Shown: positions 1-51,555 of the stretch, piece by piece | Layout of the letters: each line of letters starts with the position of its first letter | How positions within the stretch are numbered: the stretch's first letter is position 1 | DNA from: a virus | Length of the DNA stretch: 51,555 nt | Strand: one strand, 5' to 3' | Virus record (IMG/VR): IMGVR_UViG_3300001525_000450 | Location: 1 to 51,555 of that record | Translations under genes and position numbers: made by a program | Notes under the pieces: model-generated | The model's input: the letters and a program-made list of their open reading frames with translations, nothing else | The model's database searches: none | Told to the model about the DNA's origin: nothing

Positions 1-75
1 AAACATGTCTGGATTCAAAACCATGTAACCAGAACCCCAAGAGAAACACATTTGATCTTTGCCTTTGATTGGCTC
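1..75. repeat. 75-bp terminal direct repeat, copy 1 (identical to 51481..51555); most likely circular-assembly overlap
   Basis: Bases 1-75 (aaacatgtctggattc...tgattggctc) recur base-for-base at 51481-51555. The repeat lies inside a coding frame that reads across the junction. Confidence 0.95.
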
Positions 76-85: not shown

Positions 86-1063
86 TTACTCCTCCCAAGG
101 ACGTTTGTAAAGAGTTTTGCACAAATGTTTATTGTTTTTCGAAATGCTTCGAGCATAGCTCAAAATCTTGTCATTGGGTTCTGGCATATCTTCTTTGCCA
201 CGGCCATCAGGCAACAACCCAACACGATGACTCAATGCGTTGCACCCATAGCAGGGCTTGAAACTTCGTTCACCTGCATACAACAGAATTCGAGCAGCTT
301 CGAATCGTTTACTGTACCAAATGTTCTCAATGCTCTGCTCCATGATGTTGCCAATTGGGTACTCACCACGGAAGTCATTACAGCAGATTGCCACAGAGCC
401 GTCATAGCGGATCGCCAGCTCTCTGAAAGGACGAGCGCACCGTTTACCCTGATAGGACGTGTCAAGAGGTCCAGCTGCTCCACAGTGGTTGCACAGATGA
501 CGATTGATAGCTTTCTCTTTTTGAATCGGAGGATTGAACAAAACGCGGAAGCCATTAGCATTTGTACTGTACAAAGGAACCTTGGGTGCCAGATGTTCAA
601 TCTTCAGATCAGATACTTCCTGAAGAGCGTCCTCAATCGTTCGAGCATCACCTTTGTCAGCATAATAGTCGATGATCAGATCGTTAAGGCCAGCATCTCT
701 CAGAGCATAGACTCGATCAACAATAGTCTTTTGATCTGCTACCATGCCAAACCCATTGACAATGCCATAGCCATTGCTCATCATAGACATGACCGCTTTG
801 GGAAAAGCCTTTCTGAACATCTTGATGATTCTAACTGCATTAGAGTTAAGGGTTGGTTCTCCATGCATAGAGAAGATAAATCTGCTGTGCCAGCCAACAC
901 GTTTGACTTCAGCAATAATTCGCTCTGCAGTTTCTTTCTTCATGCGGTACCAAGGCTGAGTTCCTTTCTCTCGCATGCCACGAAGACCACAGAATTTGCA
1001 TCCCAGATTGCAGCCCTCATTCAGCTCAATCTGAATAGAATATGGTGGGCTCTGTTTTCTCAC
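86..1063 (-). CDS. radical SAM enzyme with C-terminal SPASM/twitch-like Cys-rich domain
   Basis: CNLGCKFC (CxxxCxxC) near the N-terminus. C-terminal CARPF..DGSVAICCNDF..GNI..SIENIW..CYGC resembles a SPASM domain. GTG start at 1063 follows GGGAGGA and overlaps the upstream stop as GTGA; the ORF-track ATG at 1084 is an alternative. Confidence 0.85.
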   Translation of the reverse strand: MRKQSPPYSIQIELNEGCNLGCKFCGLRGMREKGTQPWYRMKKETAERIIAEVKRVGWHSRFIFSMHGEPTLNSNAVRIIKMFRKAFPKAVMSMMSNGYGIVNGFGMVADQKTIVDRVYALRDAGLNDLIIDYYADKGDARTIEDALQEVSDLKIEHLAPKVPLYSTNANGFRVLFNPPIQKEKAINRHLCNHCGAAGPLDTSYQGKRCARPFRELAIRYDGSVAICCNDFRGEYPIGNIMEQSIENIWYSKRFEAARILLYAGERSFKPCYGCNALSHRVGLLPDGRGKEDMPEPNDKILSYARSISKNNKHLCKTLYKRPWEE

Positions 1064-2013
1064 TTTGATTCCTCCCAGAAACATTTGATTCTCTTGCTGC
1101 CATGGATCTTATGATAGGCTGTCCAATTGATGTCACCCCACATATAGTCACCATCGGCATCTCTGAAGCTGGTTCGCAGATAGTCCTTGATTGGGTATTT
1201 CTGCAACATATTGTATTCGTATCGATGAAGCTCTTTCTCAGTTTCAGGAGTACGAATAACACTATCGCACTTCTCACTCACATAGTCATATGTCAAGCAA
1301 GGAATATTGAAGCAGTGACCACCATTGGCAAGAATGACAGCACAGAACCCAATGTCGTCACCGTGACGATCAAAAATCATGTCACGATCAATCTTTGCCT
1401 TGTAAAGACCCTTGACATTTATCAAAGTGACCTGACGAGGGGTTGGACCGGAATCAACGATGTATTTCAGCTTGGCATTTTCCACATGCTGGGACATCCG
1501 TTGACGACGAATGTTACCCAAATAGACCTTTGGGTATGTCTTAAAAACTTCTTTGCCAATGACACCAGCCATTGTCAGAACTTTTTGCTCGAGCAGTGGA
1601 TCTGCTTCTCGATCTGCATTGATAGCATGCTTAGAACAAGGATTGCCAGACCCAGAGAACCCATCGTACATATACGCAAGATTGCGAATATCATCATCCA
1701 TGTCAATGATCATTGAATACTTATGCTCAGCGGCATACTCATAGATGAATTGACGAGTGCTGGCCAACCCATTGATTGGCAGATGAAAGTCTTTTGCGAT
1801 GGGTAGAATGTGAAGATTTGGATTTGCCTTTCGATAGGCTTTTGCTTGTTCCGGACGAACAACAATATGGATCTTTTCAAGAGCTTCTGGTTCAAAATTC
1901 TTGAACATCTCAGCAGTTACAAAGTGAGGTCTGTTGTACGAGGGAACAAATATATGAGGAAGTTGATTCACAGACAAGCTGTTAAGGTGTCTGTACATTT
2001 CTTGCTTTTTCAT
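1060..2013 (-). CDS. GT-A fold glycosyltransferase-like protein (candidate DNA-base glycosyltransferase)
   Basis: N-terminal IFVPSYNRP (GT2-type PxYNR motif) and DMDDD (DxD motif). GAGGTGA RBS upstream of ATG 2013. Sits directly upstream of, and is translationally coupled to, the rSAM gene. Confidence 0.55.
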   Translation of the reverse strand: MKKQEMYRHLNSLSVNQLPHIFVPSYNRPHFVTAEMFKNFEPEALEKIHIVVRPEQAKAYRKANPNLHILPIAKDFHLPINGLASTRQFIYEYAAEHKYSMIIDMDDDIRNLAYMYDGFSGSGNPCSKHAINADREADPLLEQKVLTMAGVIGKEVFKTYPKVYLGNIRRQRMSQHVENAKLKYIVDSGPTPRQVTLINVKGLYKAKIDRDMIFDRHGDDIGFCAVILANGGHCFNIPCLTYDYVSEKCDSVIRTPETEKELHRYEYNMLQKYPIKDYLRTSFRDADGDYMWGDINWTAYHKIHGSKRIKCFWEESK

Positions 2014-4593: not shown

Positions 4594-4670
4594 TGGTCGA
4601 GATGACAGGATTCGAACCTGCGACATCTTGGTCCCAAACCAAGCATTCTACCTGCCTGAATTACATCTCG
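4594..4670 (-). tRNA. tRNA-Pro (anticodon UGG), CCA encoded
   Basis: The reverse complement folds as a cloverleaf: acceptor CGAGATG/CATCTCG, D stem ATTC/GAAT, anticodon stem CTTGG/CCAAG with loop TTTGGGA, T arm GCAGG-TTCGAAT-CCTGT, then A-CCA. Confidence 0.85.
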
Positions 4671-4954: not shown

Positions 4955-5030
4955 TGGTGCCAGAAACAGGACTCGAACCTGCAATCAGCTGATTACAAAA
5001 CAGTCGCACTACCAATTGTGCTATCCTGGC
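4955..5030 (-). tRNA. tRNA-Thr (anticodon UGU), CCA encoded
   Basis: Acceptor GCCAGGA/TTCTGGC, D arm GCAC-AATTGGTA-GTGC, T arm GCAGG-TTCGAGT-CCTGT, A-CCA. The anticodon loop TTTGTAA is closed by only three Watson-Crick pairs, with mismatches at 27-43 and 31-39. Confidence 0.7.
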
Positions 5031-11098: not shown

Positions 11099-11455
11099 TT
11101 AGTTCATAGTTACTGTTCGATCCTCTACAGTGCGCTGCATACTGGTGCTGTTGTCAAGCCAACGCTGTACACGCTCAACCTTGGCAACCTTTCTGACATC
11201 GATCTCTTCCTGGTTAAGGTTGAAGATCGCTTTGACATGATGCAGAATAATCTCAACGTCAGCCACCTCATCAATAGCTTTCTGATGAAGATCAAGCTGA
11301 GCTTCATACTCGGAATCATATCGAGGAAACTTTGCCAACACACAGGCCAGCTCATTGAGTTCCTCGATGGCAACCAAGATCTGATTTTTATTGCCATAGA
11401 CATCACGAGCTTTGGCAAGTGTTGTTGCAATGCTATTTGCCTGTTCTTGGGTCAT
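11099..11455 (-). CDS. MazG-like all-alpha NTP pyrophosphohydrolase
   Basis: AIEELNELACVL and IDEVADVEIIL (EExxE...ExxD metal-binding pattern). GAGGTGA RBS before MTQEQ. Confidence 0.75.
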   Translation of the reverse strand: MTQEQANSIATTLAKARDVYGNKNQILVAIEELNELACVLAKFPRYDSEYEAQLDLHQKAIDEVADVEIILHHVKAIFNLNQEEIDVRKVAKVERVQRWLDNSTSMQRTVEDRTVTMN

Positions 11456-11465
11456 ATATATCACC

Positions 11466-11942
11466 TCAATTCACTGCATCAGGAGCATCCCAGCTGGTCA
11501 CCTGAACACTCTTCACACCGTTATATGCAAAGATCTGCTCTGTTTCCTCACTGATATACTGCTTGCGCCCATAGTACACCTCTGTGATTCCTGCAGCAAC
11601 AATAACACGTGCACAGGCTTCACAAGGATAGCGTGTTACATAGATTCGTCCACCTCGTGCAGATCTTTCCAGATGAGCAATAGCATCAACTTCACTATGG
11701 ATAGCACGGCAATCTGCAGGTCCACGATGGGTCTTATCATTGTTGCCATATTTCTTGATACGCAAGCAGCCCTCAAACTGACAAAGATTTGGGATTGTTG
11801 CATTTGCTCCAAAGGAGAGAATTCTGCCATGCTTATCTGTAATGCAAGACCCAACAGCAACTTTCAAGCATCCTGATCTTGATTCTGCATAGGTCTGAGC
11901 CATGTCAAGATATCTTTTGACAGGCATTTGTTCATTTGCCAT
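11466..11942 (-). CDS. deoxycytidylate (dCMP) deaminase
   Basis: HSEVDAI (HxE) and PCEACARVI (PCxxC) zinc motifs. MANEQ start overlaps the upstream stop (ATGGCAAATGA). Confidence 0.9.
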   Translation of the reverse strand: MANEQMPVKRYLDMAQTYAESRSGCLKVAVGSCITDKHGRILSFGANATIPNLCQFEGCLRIKKYGNNDKTHRGPADCRAIHSEVDAIAHLERSARGGRIYVTRYPCEACARVIVAAGITEVYYGRKQYISEETEQIFAYNGVKSVQVTSWDAPDAVN

Positions 11943-12129
11943 TGTTGTTCCTCTTTTCCTGTTCTTTCTGTTCACGACGAGCTTTCTCACGACGTGCTGC
12001 TCGGCACTCACTACAATGCGTGAAAGGCTTCAGCCCACGAGTTTCGAGCCAAGCCAGCTCGTTGTCAGAGATAGAGAAAGGACGATTGCAGGTCTTGCAG
12101 ATCCTCTGCTGACGATTGTTTTCTGCCAT
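11932..12129 (-). CDS. zinc-ribbon protein (zf-trcl-like)
   Basis: CKTCNRPFSISDNELAWLETRGLKPFTHCSECR, two CxxC pairs with a basic tail. GGAGG RBS. Confidence 0.55.
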   Translation of the reverse strand: MAENNRQQRICKTCNRPFSISDNELAWLETRGLKPFTHCSECRAARREKARREQKEQEKRNNNGK

Positions 12130-12144
12130 GATGAAGTACCTCCA

Positions 12145-13173
12145 TTATTTGTGTTGTTTGTATTTGACACGAGGACGACCAGTGCCCTCGATTGTCCGAA
12201 TGTATTTGCTGAGCTCACACATACAGTTTTCCAAGCTCATAATGTTAAGGCAACGATCATATATGGGAAGATCTATGAAAATTTCTCTCGGATCCCAATA
12301 CTGACCGTTGGGTTCCATGATCTTTGAGAAGATATGATCAACATTGTCTCTCAGCCAGAACAGTGCTTCTTCTGGAGACATGCCGTCATAGTCATCAAAA
12401 AGATAATCGAGTCCTTTCTTACACCCAGGGCCAGCTACAACAAATTCGTTTTCACTGAATGGGAACTCTTTTATATAGGTCAAGTCAACAAAGACTTGAT
12501 ATGCCAGAAAATCAGAGAATCCCTGAATCTCTTTGATGATCTCAAATGCAGCTTTTTGGTTACTGGCGTTCATGAGTCTATTGACTGTATCATGCTGCTG
12601 AAGCCATGGACCAAGATGGAACACTCGTAAAGGTATATCCTGTTCTACTCCGTCACTGAAATGATCAATATCTCCCCATCTCCAGGCCTGTTTTGTTCCA
12701 CCTTGATTATATGCTGAGCTCCACCATTTACGCTCCGGATCTTCTTCAAGGAGCCATTTGTAAATGGGTCGCACCAAAGACTTCATTCTTTGTGAAGAGT
12801 AAAGGGCTTTTGCTTGCCACGGACCACCAAAATCTCGCATTGTATCCCAGTTGTTCCATGCTCTAAAATAGAACGTATTGATGATTTTGTCAATCAGAGC
12901 AAGATCGGGATTGGTACTGATGTTTTTGATAAGATACTGGCTCTGACGATCATGTTCACGACGAACATTACAGAACTTGTACTGCTGCAGAACCCCATCG
13001 TTGGTCCAGGGAGCTTCTTTGTGAAGAACATCTTTGCGAAGATGAATTTTATATCGCTCTGTTACAAAATCATAGAATCTTCGCATGTTCTCAAGATTGT
13101 ACTTTGGGTTTGCAACTCGGATTTTGATCCTGTTGACACCACAGTACAACTTGTCTCGAGGTTTGGTTTTCAT
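12145..13173 (-). CDS. alpha-glutamyl/putrescinyl-thymine pyrophosphorylase-like (aGPT-Pplase-like) DNA base hypermodification protein, tentative
   Basis: APWTNDGVLQQYKFCNVRREHDRQSQYL matches my recollection of the PWTxDxIL..Y.FxNV.RE.DR signature of this phage family. ATG at 13173 with an AAGGCGGTG RBS, directly downstream of its own promoter. Confidence 0.45.
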   Translation of the reverse strand: MKTKPRDKLYCGVNRIKIRVANPKYNLENMRRFYDFVTERYKIHLRKDVLHKEAPWTNDGVLQQYKFCNVRREHDRQSQYLIKNISTNPDLALIDKIINTFYFRAWNNWDTMRDFGGPWQAKALYSSQRMKSLVRPIYKWLLEEDPERKWWSSAYNQGGTKQAWRWGDIDHFSDGVEQDIPLRVFHLGPWLQQHDTVNRLMNASNQKAAFEIIKEIQGFSDFLAYQVFVDLTYIKEFPFSENEFVVAGPGCKKGLDYLFDDYDGMSPEEALFWLRDNVDHIFSKIMEPNGQYWDPREIFIDLPIYDRCLNIMSLENCMCELSKYIRTIEGTGRPRVKYKQHK

Positions 13174-13203
13174 ATCACACCGCCTTTGCTTCAAGTATTA
13201 CAT

Positions 13204-49377: not shown

Positions 49378-49806
49378 TCAAACTCCTTTCTTCAGAAACT
49401 CACAATAGGATTTGTGAATGGCAATATTCAAGTCTTTGTGATTGACATCAAGTCTATGACACCAGTAAAGAAAATCTTGCTCAACTGGGATTGCCTTGTC
49501 ATCAATGTAAAGGTCAGCAAAAACCTTTCTTGTGTCATTGTTGTAGAGAGCAATCACTTCAGGAATATTTGTATTGATTGCATCAAATACAATTCCTTTC
49601 TGGTGGCAATAGGAGACAGCATCAATGAGATTTTTGCCATCTCGAGATGTCCAAAGAATGACTCGTACACCTTGCGCCTGAAGAGCTTTTACAAGGCTGA
49701 ACATTCCCATATTGGGCTCCCCAATTTCAGGGAATTTGTCTTCTACCAAAGTACCATCAAAATCGATAGCAACAATCTTTGGCAGATCATTATTTGTTTT
49801 GTTCAT
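49378..49806 (-). CDS. HAD-superfamily phosphatase-like protein
   Basis: IVAIDFDGTLVED (DxDGT motif I), ILWTSRDG (motif II-like), LYIDDKA (motif IV-like). GAGGAG RBS. Confidence 0.65.
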   Translation of the reverse strand: MNKTNNDLPKIVAIDFDGTLVEDKFPEIGEPNMGMFSLVKALQAQGVRVILWTSRDGKNLIDAVSYCHQKGIVFDAINTNIPEVIALYNNDTRKVFADLYIDDKAIPVEQDFLYWCHRLDVNHKDLNIAIHKSYCEFLKKGV

Positions 49807-50179
49807 ATTTTACAGTCTCCTCTTTCATGTGGAGAGAGGTCCAATTCTTTATGACCCCATCCATAGGAAGTGCAGCATGCCCAAGTGTTGGGCTGAATAG
49901 TTCAAAATATCTGTCTTGATATGCGATGTAAATTGCTTTTTTCACAGAGTCTACATCGCTCTTTCGAGCCATTTTGAATGTGATATCGAAGTCTTCTTTG
50001 CACCATTTTCTGATCCAAACACTTATGTCAAACCCATCAGTGTTTGTAGCTTTTGAAAAGGCATCCCAGACTTCAACAGGTACATAGCAAAAATGAATCC
50101 AAATGATCCCTTGATCACTTATTACCTTTGACAGAACTTTCCTGTACACCGCTTTCGAGTTTGGGCTTCTGTGTCTCAT
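49790..50179 (-). CDS. hypothetical protein (129 aa)
   Basis: GGAGGG RBS before MRHRSPNSK. Overlaps the 3' end of the ThyA-like gene by 65 nt. Confidence 0.5.
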   Translation of the reverse strand: MRHRSPNSKAVYRKVLSKVISDQGIIWIHFCYVPVEVWDAFSKATNTDGFDISVWIRKWCKEDFDITFKMARKSDVDSVKKAIYIAYQDRYFELFSPTLGHAALPMDGVIKNWTSLHMKEETVKYEQNK

Positions 50180-50981
50180 TGTTACCCTCCGGAGCTTTTT
50201 CACCATCCGGCAAGTTGCGCTCATAGATATGTAACGAACCAGCCTGATGGGTATATGTACCAACATCAACACCCAAAGTCATTGCCATCATCACCTGCAT
50301 AGAGCAGAAGCTGAACATGTCATAGGGTACACCAGTCCAGACGTCATTGGAACGCATGGTTGTCGTGAGGTTAAGGCGACCGTCACGGAGCAAGAACTGA
50401 AGAGACAATGTACACGGAGTATCTTTTGTTGGCTCACTCATGGGTCGAGGATTCTTGATCTGAATCACTGCCTGGCGACTATTCGGATCAGCTTTGAGAC
50501 GGTTAATGACATCCTGCCACTGATCAAACCCATAGAAATGCTGAATCTTGTGACCATAGCAGCTATTGACTGTTTCTCCGTCATCACTCATACGGTTCCA
50601 AGCAGAACTGAAAAGCCCAATGTCTTTGAGTTTGTTAGACCCAGAGAGATACCACAGCAATTCACCCACAGCATAACGCATGGGCATCTTGCGAGCTTCA
50701 CTCTTGACAATCATACGGGTGGGATCCTTGACAACGGTGATAGCATTGATGATCTCAGCAGCCACAGCGCCATCACGAGAGGAAGCAGTTTTCTTATTCA
50801 TACGGTGCTGAGCCAGCAGAGCAGCGAACCAGTATTCCCATGCATTATTGACATCGTTGACAACCACATAATTGTCAATATCAGCATCGCCACACAGGCG
50901 ATCACTCTTGTTGTAAAGGGACGTGAGCTTATACTCTTTTACAACTTTATTGAAGTCTTCCACATTGAACAGCAAACCCAT
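50115..50981 (-). CDS. thymidylate synthase-family pyrimidine C5 (hydroxy)methylase with Asp at the Asn177-equivalent position (dCMP-specific type predicted)
   Basis: ELLWYLSG, DPNSRQ, catalytic Cys in TPCTLSLQF, RSNDVWTGVPYD (ThyA: RSCDVFLGLPFN), GSLHIYERN. GGAGG RBS before MGLLFNV. Confidence 0.8.
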   Translation of the reverse strand: MGLLFNVEDFNKVVKEYKLTSLYNKSDRLCGDADIDNYVVVNDVNNAWEYWFAALLAQHRMNKKTASSRDGAVAAEIINAITVVKDPTRMIVKSEARKMPMRYAVGELLWYLSGSNKLKDIGLFSSAWNRMSDDGETVNSCYGHKIQHFYGFDQWQDVINRLKADPNSRQAVIQIKNPRPMSEPTKDTPCTLSLQFLLRDGRLNLTTTMRSNDVWTGVPYDMFSFCSMQVMMAMTLGVDVGTYTHQAGSLHIYERNLPDGEKAPEGNNETQKPKLESGVQESSVKGNK

Positions 50982-50983
50982 TT

Positions 50984-51409
50984 TTAAGTCCTCCAAATCT
51001 CAATCTGCAGAGTTGAATTTCCCATGACCTCATCGAACCGCTTCATCAGCTCTTTGACAGGATACATGGGAGTTTCGTTGCGCTTGTTAAGGCGCTCTTC
51101 GATAGTCTTTTCTTGAGTGGTGACATAGATCACCTTTGCACCACGAGCAAGCATAGCAGTCTCCAAATGATAGAGATCTTCCTTGCTCAGCTTCCGTTCT
51201 TCAGGAGTCTGATAAACGAACTGACCATAGCAAAACCGATCAGCAATCACATTTTCATTGGTCGCTGCATCGAGAATGTGATGGAAATAACGATAGTCAT
51301 TTGGGGTATCCTTTGTACAGTGGATAATACGTGCGTTGAGAATTCTTGCGAGCTTTCTGGCGATAGTGCTTTTGCCAACGCCATCAACTCCCTCCAATAC
51401 AATGAGCAT
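50984..51409 (-). CDS. short P-loop nucleotide kinase (Tmk/dNMP kinase-like)
   Basis: MLIVLEGVDGVGKSTIARKLA (Tmk-type P-loop), DRFCYGQFVY. Only 141 aa. Confidence 0.7.
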   Translation of the reverse strand: MLIVLEGVDGVGKSTIARKLARILNARIIHCTKDTPNDYRYFHHILDAATNENVIADRFCYGQFVYQTPEERKLSKEDLYHLETAMLARGAKVIYVTTQEKTIEERLNKRNETPMYPVKELMKRFDEVMGNSTLQIEIWRT

Positions 51410-51555
51410 TATTTGCTCCTTTCTGCTGCCTTGCAGACAGCTGCAATGATTTGATCTTGTCTCTTCTGGGGCAACCTATAAAACATGTCTGGATTCAAAA
51501 CCATGTAACCAGAACCCCAAGAGAAACACATTTGATCTTTGCCTTTGATTGGCTC
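51409..51555 (-). CDS. 3' part (all but the start codon) of the 49-aa junction-spanning hypothetical protein
   Basis: Same ORF as 1..78 read across the circular junction. TAA at 51411..51409 overlaps the kinase ATG. Confidence 0.5.
   Translation of the reverse strand, partial: EPIKGKDQMCFSWGSGYMVLNPDMFYRLPQKRQDQIIAAVCKAAERSK
51481..51555. repeat. 75-bp terminal direct repeat, copy 2
   Basis: Identical to bases 1-75. Confidence 0.95.

Follow-up and report, generated by a model that had tools for sequence, protein, structure and literature searches.

What does a thymidylate synthase-like enzyme make for a phage when an Asp stands at its base-specificity position and a short P-loop kinase is encoded beside it? 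The question is raised by the IMG/VR virus record IMGVR_UViG_3300001525_000450, of which positions 1 to 51,555 (the whole stretch analyzed here, referred to as the window) carry the gene of a 288-amino-acid (aa) ThyA-fold enzyme directly downstream of that of a 141-aa kinase. An earlier examination of the bare letters, hereafter the original prediction, had recognized a T-even-like logic in this pair, with a ThyA-family modifier of deoxycytidine monophosphate (dCMP) coupled to a kinase, and both the alignments and the gene content described below support it. In our core model, 5-hydroxymethyl-dCMP (5hm-dCMP) is made, activated, incorporated into DNA, and then glycosylated, and we put the probability of this model at about three in four. 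The two genes appear to be central to a pre-replicative pathway of cytosine replacement, T-even in type and assembled from partly nonhomologous parts, and the phage DNA probably carries sugar-decorated cytosines.

The fold, family, signature residues, gene linkage, and conservation reported here were computed. Both open reading frames (ORFs) were recovered where they had first been placed, on the minus strand. The gene of the predicted dCMP hydroxymethylase (50115..50981) has an ATG with a GGAGG Shine-Dalgarno sequence and begins 2 nt past the stop codon of the kinase gene (50984..51409); no terminator-like site was found between the two. An alternative TTG start at 50996 would give a 293-aa protein but would overlap the kinase. 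The segments originally quoted from the protein (ELLWYLSG, DQWQDVINRLKADPNSRQ, TPCTLSLQF, RSNDVWTGVPYD, and GSLHIYERN) are all there, and its assignment to the ThyA family agrees with the Pfam, PDB-sequence, and Foldseek matches. Thymidylat_synt (PF00303) matched with an E value of 1.4e-33 (116.6 bits; cutoff, 24.3), and PHROG "thymidylate synthase" families matched with E values down to 1e-52. The closest PDB sequence is MilA, the CMP 5-hydroxymethylase of mildiomycin biosynthesis (PDB 5b6d and 5jnh; E value of 2e-34, about 36% identity), whereas true thymidylate synthases score 1e-22 or weaker. All NCBIfam ThyA equivalogs fell far below cutoff (best, 94 bits versus 327), which shows that the protein is no ordinary ThyA. 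An AlphaFold (AF2) model built from 32 homologs was confident, with a predicted local distance difference test score (pLDDT) of 86.5 and a predicted template modeling score (pTM) of 0.85. Foldseek searches with it returned MilA first (8e-19), T4 dCMP hydroxymethylase second (3e-14), and thymidylate synthases next, with the flavin-dependent dCMP hydroxylase of HY126 at rank 41. The protein lacks the C-terminal stretch with which ThyA closes its active site, about 50 residues by alignment, and its last 27 residues are predicted to be disordered.

We then compared the active-site residues with those of E. coli ThyA, T4 gp42, RB69 gp48, a ViI-type dUMP hydroxymethylase, and MilA (alignment A1) and, in a second control alignment, also with M6 gp58; both were made with MAFFT. 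The original prediction had placed Asp at the position of E. coli Asn177 and had named a rigorous alignment as the test that could overturn this. In the phmmer pairwise alignment and in both MAFFT alignments, Asp221 is aligned with E. coli Asn177, T4 Asp179, and MilA Asp186, the position that separates cytosine from uracil. The general acid Glu107 (E. coli E58, T4 Glu60) and the catalytic nucleophile Cys190 (C146, Cys148) are invariant columns in alignments A1 and A3. Arg169 (R126, Arg123) corresponds to the residue contacting the phosphate and deoxyribose, and Ser211 (S167, Ser169) to that contacting the deoxyribose. Three residues before Cys190 stands Asp187 (L143, Asp145), at the position that distinguishes hydroxymethyl from methyl products, and Asp213 (D169, Asp171) stands where Asn marks a hydroxylase. 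Ser140-Cys-Tyr142, a Ser-x-Tyr motif, matches the water-positioning Ser94 and Tyr96 of T4. All of these T4 gp42 residues thus have equivalents in a protein of only about 25 to 27% identity to it, and D187, C190, D213, D221, S140, and Y142 are identical between the two. His251 and Tyr253 are also among the key residues.

The controls behaved according to published rules, with Asn at 221 in dUMP enzymes, Leu at 187 in E. coli ThyA, and Asn at 213 in RB69 gp48. At positions 187/190/213/221, E. coli ThyA reads L/C/D/N, M6 gp58 and the ViI-like dUMP hydroxymethylases read D/C/D/N, and the 5-hydroxy-dCMP synthase RB69 gp48 reads E/C/N/D. The nine-residue signature is common to 121 of 121 sequences (the query and its 120 best database homologs). 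It is also found in 92 of 92 related loci (numbered with an L below), although most of these were fetched by a pattern containing "PYD," which makes their Asp221 partly a matter of construction and leaves the 121-sequence set as the independent support.

It had been supposed that the sequence cannot tell hydroxymethyl-dCMP from methyl-dCMP. Published signatures, however, can separate the two. The N177D change directs the enzyme to dCMP, an acidic residue at L143 leads to a nonmethyl product, and D169N leads to hydroxylation (PMC13326640). The ternary complex and mutagenesis of the T4 enzyme identified Asp145 together with Ser94/Tyr96 as the hydroxymethylation signature, and the D145N, S94N, and Y96F variants were inactive (PMC6400193). 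In MilA, Ala176 and Lys133' confer the preference for ribose, which A176S/K133R reverses (PMC5175136); the query has Ser211 and Arg169 instead, the deoxyribonucleotide determinants found in dCMP and dUMP enzymes. Taken together, Asp187 with Ser140-x-Tyr142, Asp213, and the Ser211/Arg169 pair point to 5hm-dCMP as the predicted product, and the query carries all the signature residues expected of a folate-dependent 2'-deoxy-CMP hydroxymethylase. A CMP hydroxymethylase of the MilA/BcmA type was ruled out by Ser211 and Arg169, and a canonical ThyA by Asp221, Asp187, the missing C-terminal 50 or so residues, and the subcutoff equivalog score.

A dCMP methyltransferase of the XP12 type, which would transfer the methyl group reductively to give 5-methyl-dCMP and DNA containing 5-methylcytosine (5mC), is compatible with Asp221 taken alone, and N177D/N229D mutants of thymidylate synthase are reported to turn into dCMP methylases. 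We consider this highly improbable. Asp187 replaces the bulky, water-excluding Leu143; Ser140-x-Tyr142 and Met131 (E. coli Trp83) fit the T4 enzyme and not thymidylate synthase; and the two top structural matches are cytosine hydroxymethylases. The hydroxymethyl product is favored because of the Asp at the L143 position, the Ser-x-Tyr motif, the lack of the C-terminal closing segment, and a DNA glycosyltransferase encoded in the same operon (see below), which requires a hydroxyl acceptor.

The choice between hydroxymethyl and methyl, as first posed, overlooked a third option, namely, a flavin-dependent 5-hydroxy-dCMP synthase like RB69 gp48, DLP3 gp80, and HY126 AfhB, with the sugar attached directly to the C5 oxygen. 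Enzymes of the RB69 gp48 type, too, combine Asp at the N177 position with an acidic L143 equivalent, MilA is their best structural match too, and they likewise adjoin YorR-like kinases, HAD phosphatases, and glycosyltransferases. Their D169N change, however, is absent here. Asp213 is kept in the query and in 120 of 120 homologs, whereas RB69 gp48 has Asn, which disfavors the 5-hydroxy product and leads us to predict folate-dependent hydroxymethylation. RB69 gp48 departs from the query at three more positions, with Thr for Ser140, Ala for Trp128, and Phe for Tyr253, and the HY126 hydroxylase came far behind MilA and the T4 enzyme in the Foldseek list. A flavin-type product is therefore very unlikely in our view.

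If 5hm-dCMP is the product, a kinase would be needed for its activation. The 141-aa protein, whose ATG is preceded by an AAAGGAG Shine-Dalgarno sequence, is a compact P-loop nucleotide kinase of the YorR/Tmk type. Thymidylate_kin (PF02223) matched at 48 bits (cutoff, 27), but a bona fide dTMP kinase (NCBIfam TIGR00041) was rejected at 49.1 bits versus a cutoff of 83.25 and a length of 141 aa versus about 200 aa. Its sole full-length solved relative is the uncharacterized YorR of SPbeta (2e-11; hhalign, 99.5%). The structural model (pLDDT, 96.4) retrieved YorR with a template modeling (TM) score of 0.81, followed by thymidylate and deoxynucleoside kinases. The original description of a Tmk-like kinase immediately upstream in the same operon was therefore right about the adjacency, while "Tmk-like" holds only broadly, as the protein belongs with YorR. 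The family motifs LEGxDGxGK (GVDGVGKS in the query), the ADRFCYGQFVYQ block, R72, R106, and R110 are invariant or nearly so, a set that reads as the pattern of a nucleoside monophosphate (NMP) site (DR(Y/F)) and LID arginines. A dNMP kinase of the T4 gp1 type was rejected, since hhalign gave 18% over 25 columns covering the P-loop only, and PF21448 (DNMK) matches T4 gp1 and not the query.

In 38 of the 92 loci, across unrelated backbones and different cassettes, the kinase gene immediately precedes the ThyA-like gene. A weak homolog occupies the same position in the Enterococcus phage VPE25, and YorR-like "nucleotide kinases" also flank cytosine-modifying ThyA homologs in DLP3, RB69, and RL38J1. 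No other small-molecule kinase was detectable in the genome with phmmer. Given its fold, its motifs, its coupling to the ThyA-like gene, the conserved adjacency, and the lack of another detectable kinase, we infer that the protein phosphorylates 5hm-dCMP.

Alternatively, the kinase could be the catalytic subunit of a DNA 5-hydroxymethylcytosine (5hmC) kinase, acting with an M6 gp55-like helical protein ("HMUDK_hel," PF18723; 349 aa; 12145..13194, minus strand) and priming 5hmC for further substitution. The helical protein matches PF18723 at 1.1e-59 and M6 gp55 by phmmer at 1.8e-10, and M6 gp55 matches the same family. In M6, the gp55-like family is encoded beside a 5-hydroxymethyldeoxyuridine (5-hmdU) DNA kinase; the window has the gp55-like protein, but phmmer and Pfam searches found no PF18748 DNA kinase and no PF18724 transferase in it, leaving the gp55-like protein an orphan. 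The P-loop kinases of TET clusters, moreover, were proposed to phosphorylate 5hmC. Yet the likeness to the validated DNA base kinase M6 gp54 was confined to 28 P-loop columns without a PF18748 match, on which ground a 5-hmdU DNA kinase was rejected, and the NMP-site and LID residues are of the Tmk type in a YorR/Tmk/deoxynucleoside kinase fold. In the relatives L010 and L103, the 141-aa kinase adjoins a genuine PF18748 kinase, which indicates two separate functions, and it is linked to the ThyA-like gene, while the gp55-like gene lies about 13.7 kb away. We regard a role on DNA as unlikely and retain 5hm-dCMP as the probable substrate of the kinase.

In loci without the 141-aa kinase, the slot upstream of the ThyA-like gene often holds a P-loop protein with a T4 gp1-like "GxxGSGKD" Walker A motif (about nine loci: L012, L022, L024, L025, L029, L034, L038, L049, and L050). 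By hhalign, this family scored 44% against T4 gp1 over 42 columns only, so that displacement of the 141-aa kinase by a nonorthologous, gp1-like one is no more than suggested.

The search for further genes of the pathway depended on the topology of the window. Its first 75 bases are an exact direct repeat of its last 75 (1..75 and 51481..51555, no strand assigned), and the joined ends are colinear with the close relatives L015 and L017; the same gene order occurs in L008 and L009. These features identify the window as a circular or circularly permuted genome with 51,480 bp of unique sequence, and the genes at its start sit directly upstream of the kinase gene, in one block running from a radical S-adenosylmethionine (SAM) enzyme into the kinase. 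After closing the circle, the order is AAA_24, DUF669, TAGT glycosyltransferase, radical SAM enzyme, kinase, ThyA-like enzyme, a 129-aa ORF, HAD phosphatase, VRR-like nuclease, and SNF2 helicase. Because of the circular permutation, the original prediction, which had the two genes and the pool-shaping genes right, missed the rest of the system, i.e., the glycosyltransferase, the radical SAM enzyme, the 129-aa ORF, and the phosphatase.

The glycosyltransferase (317 aa; 1060..2013, minus strand) is a TAGT-type DNA glycosyltransferase with a GT-A fold. PF20691 (TAGT) matched it at 42 bits (cutoff, 27.5) over the N-terminal half of the profile, phrog_4519 (glycosyltransferase) matched over the full length at 6e-24, and phrog_842 (beta-glucosyl-HMC-alpha-glucosyltransferase) matched at 1.6e-12. 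The Pfam family names TAGT and 5-HMUDK were calibrated on validated M6 proteins. The motifs PSYNRP, DMDDDI, and HGDDIGF are invariant and fit the published R...DDD... motifs of GT-A DNA glycosyltransferases. TAGT-family enzymes have been shown experimentally to glycosylate 5hmC in DNA (PMC8256090; bioRxiv 10.1101/2023.12.21.572611), and the protein encoded here may do the same.

Its neighbor (332 aa; 86..1084, minus strand) is a radical SAM enzyme resembling BtrN, with an auxiliary Fe-S domain of the SPASM/twitch kind (PF04055 and PF13186). NCBIfam twitch/SPASM families matched, all far under their cutoffs. The best PDB match is BtrN, a sugar-alcohol dehydrogenase (5.8e-11; residues 17 to 106 and 212 to 285), and it spans both the core and the auxiliary-cluster domain. 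C25, C29, and C32 of the CxxxCxxC motif and six more Cys residues are invariant. The enzyme may tailor the sugar or the base. A viperin (pVip) was rejected, as the PADLOC match (5e-5, 21 bits) covered only the generic core (residues 18 to 112) and the SPASM/twitch C terminus is foreign to viperin. PADLOC also gave the kinase a full-length "VakA" match (5e-11) next to this weak pVip match, and automated pipelines could mislabel the two genes as a viperin defense module.

In the relatives, the slot between DUF669 and the kinase/ThyA-like pair is a modular cassette, which we surveyed in 39 syntenic loci (noted loci: L010, L012, L022 to L092, and L103). A PF18748 kinase with a partner of about 315 aa, split or fused, occupied it in 21 and TAGT in 19; the twitch radical SAM enzyme was present in 13, and 12 of these also had TAGT adjacent. 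The radical SAM-TAGT pair also occurs within the larger cassette of L103, which holds a second radical SAM enzyme, and L012 has a SAM methyltransferase in the slot. The pair is adjacent, too, on an unrelated 97-kb contig (L104:7001-8820), beside a gene of the dCTP deaminase/dUTPase family, with no ThyA homolog within 7 kb. Tentatively, TAGT and the BtrN-like enzyme could install an undescribed hypermodified cytosine, e.g., a keto-, amino-, or radically rearranged sugar on 5hmC, a possibility we rate well short of even. The surveyed cassettes, including those of L012 and L103, all lie beside ThyA homologs with the Asp signature, which in the case of the PF18748 kinases hints at 5hmC-directed DNA kinases. 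A relationship of their 315-aa partner to the gp55-like PF18723 family was unsupported (hhalign, 12%).

The original prediction had also listed a MazG-like pyrophosphatase, a dCMP deaminase, and a dUTPase, and all three were found. The MazG-like nucleoside triphosphate (NTP) pyrophosphohydrolase (121 aa; 11099..11464, minus strand) matched phrog_2245 at 2e-14, with no Pfam, NCBIfam, or PDB sequence match. Its gene adjoins that of the dCMP deaminase (181 aa; 11466..12011, minus strand; PF00383, 2.5e-14; phrog_174, 9.6e-31) here and in L034, L039, and L049, and in the window the gp55-like gene lies next to them. The MazG-like protein may be a dCTP/dUTP pyrophosphatase supplying dCMP. The dUTPase (167 aa; 20192..20695, plus strand) matched that of VPE25 by phmmer (2.5e-21). 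An HD hydrolase is also among the pool-shaping genes; neither it nor the MazG-like protein had informative sequence matches to solved structures. In the window, phmmer found no gp56-like dCTPase and no T4 alpha- or beta-glucosyltransferase.

This gene set could also be taken to mean that 5hm-dCMP is only an intermediate, which the deaminase would convert to 5hm-dUMP for activation by the Tmk-like kinase, so that the DNA would contain 5-hydroxymethyluracil (5hmU) or both bases. Such a route would account for the genes of the 5-hmdU-pathway type: a dCMP deaminase, a thymidylate kinase-like kinase, and a gp55-like protein are all present, and relatives have PF18748 "5-hmdU DNA kinases" beside the same Asp-type enzyme. 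dCMP deaminases accept 5-substituted dCMP. The route would nonetheless be a needless detour, as Asn-type dUMP hydroxymethylases exist and are used by every characterized 5hmU phage. T4 likewise pairs a dCMP deaminase with hydroxymethylcytosine, and the phages VPE25 and VFW, with a homologous enzyme, carry modified cytosine. We give replacement by 5hmU hardly any weight.

Under the core model, which keeps 5hmC as the replacing base, the ThyA-fold enzyme would bind dCMP, with Asp221 reading the N3/N4 edge of cytosine and with Ser211 and Arg169' suiting a 2'-deoxyribonucleotide. Cys190 would attack C6, and the methylene group of 5,10-methylene-tetrahydrofolate (THF) would be passed to C5. Instead of a hydride transfer, a water molecule held by Asp187, Ser140, and Tyr142 would add to the exocyclic methylene, yielding 5hm-dCMP and THF. 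The translationally coupled kinase would then form the diphosphate, a host nucleoside diphosphate (NDP) kinase would form 5hm-dCTP, and the family A DNA polymerase of the phage (6127..7821, minus strand) would incorporate 5hmC. This polymerase was identified by tblastn to phage DNA polymerase I genes and by PF00476 on the orthologs in L010 and L012. Meanwhile, the MazG-like pyrophosphatase, the dCMP deaminase, and the dUTPase may set the pools, depleting dCTP by its conversion to dCMP, turning dCMP into dUMP for dTTP, and keeping out dUTP. Once the DNA has been replicated, a sugar would be added to the hydroxyl of 5hmC by the GT-A glycosyltransferase, whose gene lies two genes upstream in the block, and the adjacent BtrN-like enzyme would tailor the sugar adduct.

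Several points weigh against this model. The product, the kinase substrate, the specificity of the pyrophosphatase, the sugar, the radical SAM reaction, and the composition of the DNA are all things that we infer. The L143 and D169 rules come from a modest number of characterized enzymes, the D169N rule from one 2026 paper (PMC13326640), and the Asp221 of the loci retrieved by pattern does not count as independent evidence. In RB69 and DLP3, it was the gp1-type dNMP kinase, not the YorR-like one, that was shown to phosphorylate the modified dCMP (PMC13326640). The MazG-like protein is matched at the PHROG level only, with no demonstrated dCTPase relative, and the gp55-like protein and the PF18748 kinases of the relatives are so far known only from pathways of 5-hydroxymethyluracil.

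Compared with known systems, the one in the window is closest in logic to that of T4 (gp42, gp1, gp56, cd, and the alpha- and beta-glucosyltransferases), with which it shares the family of the first enzyme, the dCMP deaminase, an NTP pyrophosphatase, and postreplicative glycosylation. It differs in that the kinase is of the YorR/Tmk type and not the gp1/DNMK type, the glycosyltransferase is a GT-A TAGT and not a GT-B enzyme, the MazG-like protein shows no detectable relationship to gp56, and a radical SAM partner is added; the virus, moreover, is a siphovirus of Clostridia-type bacteria. MilA, the nearest solved relative in both sequence and structure, also has Asp at the L143 and N177 positions, but it is encoded in an antibiotic gene cluster, whereas the query is part of a phage replication module. 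Like the query, the RB69 gp48 and DLP3 gp80 clusters (PMC13326640) combine a cytosine-specific ThyA homolog with a YorR-like kinase, a HAD phosphatase, and DNA glycosyltransferases. Unlike them, the window lacks arabinose or NDP-sugar genes and a dNMP kinase of the gp1 type, and its transferase is GT-A, not GT-B.

The Enterococcus phages VPE25 and VFW (with 9183 and nattely) are Gram-positive siphoviruses with an Asp-type ThyA homolog 42 to 48% identical to the query, a small, weakly homologous kinase directly upstream, a dUTPase, and glycosyltransferases. Their DNA resists bisulfite conversion, which indicates that the cytosine is modified, and the ThyA homolog of 42% identity adjoins a T4-like beta-glucosyltransferase. 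They differ by their genomes of about 86 kb, their backbone, and this GT-B enzyme, and no radical SAM or TAGT gene was found within the region examined. The clusters of 5mYOX (TET) with a C5-methyltransferase and of ThyS with GT-A enzymes (PMC8256090; bioRxiv 10.1101/2023.12.21.572611) encode the same TAGT family with its R...DDD... motifs, and the association of GT-A glycosyltransferases with ThyA homologs had already been seen in that metagenome mining. TET clusters, however, oxidize 5mC in DNA, whereas 5hmC would here come from dCMP before replication. Neither of the two papers describes a radical SAM partner or kinase, although the "viperins" listed near ThyS/GT clusters (bioRxiv 10.1101/2023.12.21.572611) may be radical SAM genes of this sort.

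The thymidine hypermodification systems of M6, ViI, PaMx11, SP10, and PhiW-14 (PMC8989533) share with the query system a replication module that contains a ThyA-type hydroxymethylase, a dCMP deaminase, an HD hydrolase, a PF18723 gp55-like protein, and a radical SAM enzyme; relatives of the query phage add PF18748 DNA kinases. The hydroxymethylases of those systems use dUMP and show Asn at the specificity position, in contrast to the Asp of the query. The window lacks the PF18748 kinase and the PF18724 amino acid:DNA transferase, and the radical SAM enzyme of M6, with 480 aa, is another protein.

Downstream of the ThyA-like gene, an apparent gap of 309 bp had to be explained. A regulatory RNA was rejected, as there was no Rfam match and the frame is open across the gap, which belongs to a conserved protein-coding ORF of 129 aa (49790..50179, minus strand; ATG at 50179 with a GGAGGG Shine-Dalgarno sequence). 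It overlaps the 3' end of the ThyA-like gene by 65 nt, its peptide is conserved immediately after that gene in 37 loci, and it matched no Pfam or PHROG family. The next gene (49378..49806, minus strand) encodes a 142-aa HAD-superfamily phosphatase of the BT0820 type. It matched NCBIfam NF046079 at 3.8e-30 (below the cutoff of that family), PDB 2obb (the uncharacterized BT0820 protein) at 5.8e-19, and phrog_1238 ("phosphoheptose isomerase"), a name annotated on RB69 gp51. In 44 of the 92 loci, the HAD gene follows the ThyA-like gene at a distance of 1.0 to 1.2 kb, whichever cassette is present. For RB69 gp51 and DLP3 gp81, a role in arabinose-5-phosphate dephosphorylation was recently assigned. 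As there are no arabinose genes here, a role of this phosphatase at the nucleotide level may deserve a look.

In its backbone proteins, the virus resembles Clostridium and Clostridioides phages as well as metagenomic phages from mammalian guts, which supports its having been called a Firmicutes-type siphovirus. When the region was compared by megablast with 50,697 phage records, no near-identical cultured phage was found. The replication module contains phage-encoded tRNA-Pro(TGG) (4594-4670, minus strand) and tRNA-Thr(TGT) (4955-5030, minus strand) genes. A 413-aa ORF at 45516-46757 (minus strand) has no family matches and an odd, Cys-rich, low-complexity composition, overlaps plausible plus-strand genes, and is probably not a gene.

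The closest cultured homologs of the ThyA-fold enzyme were found in Agathobaculum phages (54% identity), Lactobacillus phage ATCCB, and Enterococcus phages of the VPE25 group. Public metagenomes contain 2,111 homologs at E values of 1e-10 or lower, and IMG/VR has at least 594 loci. The core pathway follows the known T4-like strategy, and both hydroxymethylcytosine in Gram-positive siphoviruses (VPE25/VFW) and clusters of ThyA with GT-A enzymes are already in the literature. What is new is the conserved radical SAM-glycosyltransferase pair, together with the nonhomologous parts and the swappable slot. The four-position ThyA signature (L143, D169, N177, and Ser-x-Tyr) can be used to assign products straight from sequence. 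The coupling of a radical SAM enzyme to a DNA glycosyltransferase offers a concrete lead, open to testing, toward new DNA chemistry, and the relatives point to possible 5hmC-directed DNA kinases. If the pair does modify 5hmC further, the slot between DUF669 and the kinase/ThyA-like pair would be a swap-in "hypermodification cassette," which would imply that 5hmC DNA kinases exist and that cytosine has a family of hypermodifications like that known for thymidine. If the core model is true, a large, largely uncultured group of gut siphoviruses with genomes of about 50 kb would swap cytosine for glycosylated 5hmC. This would bear on their recovery by sequencing, PCR, and bisulfite methods, on phage engineering, and on how these phages escape from restriction and CRISPR.

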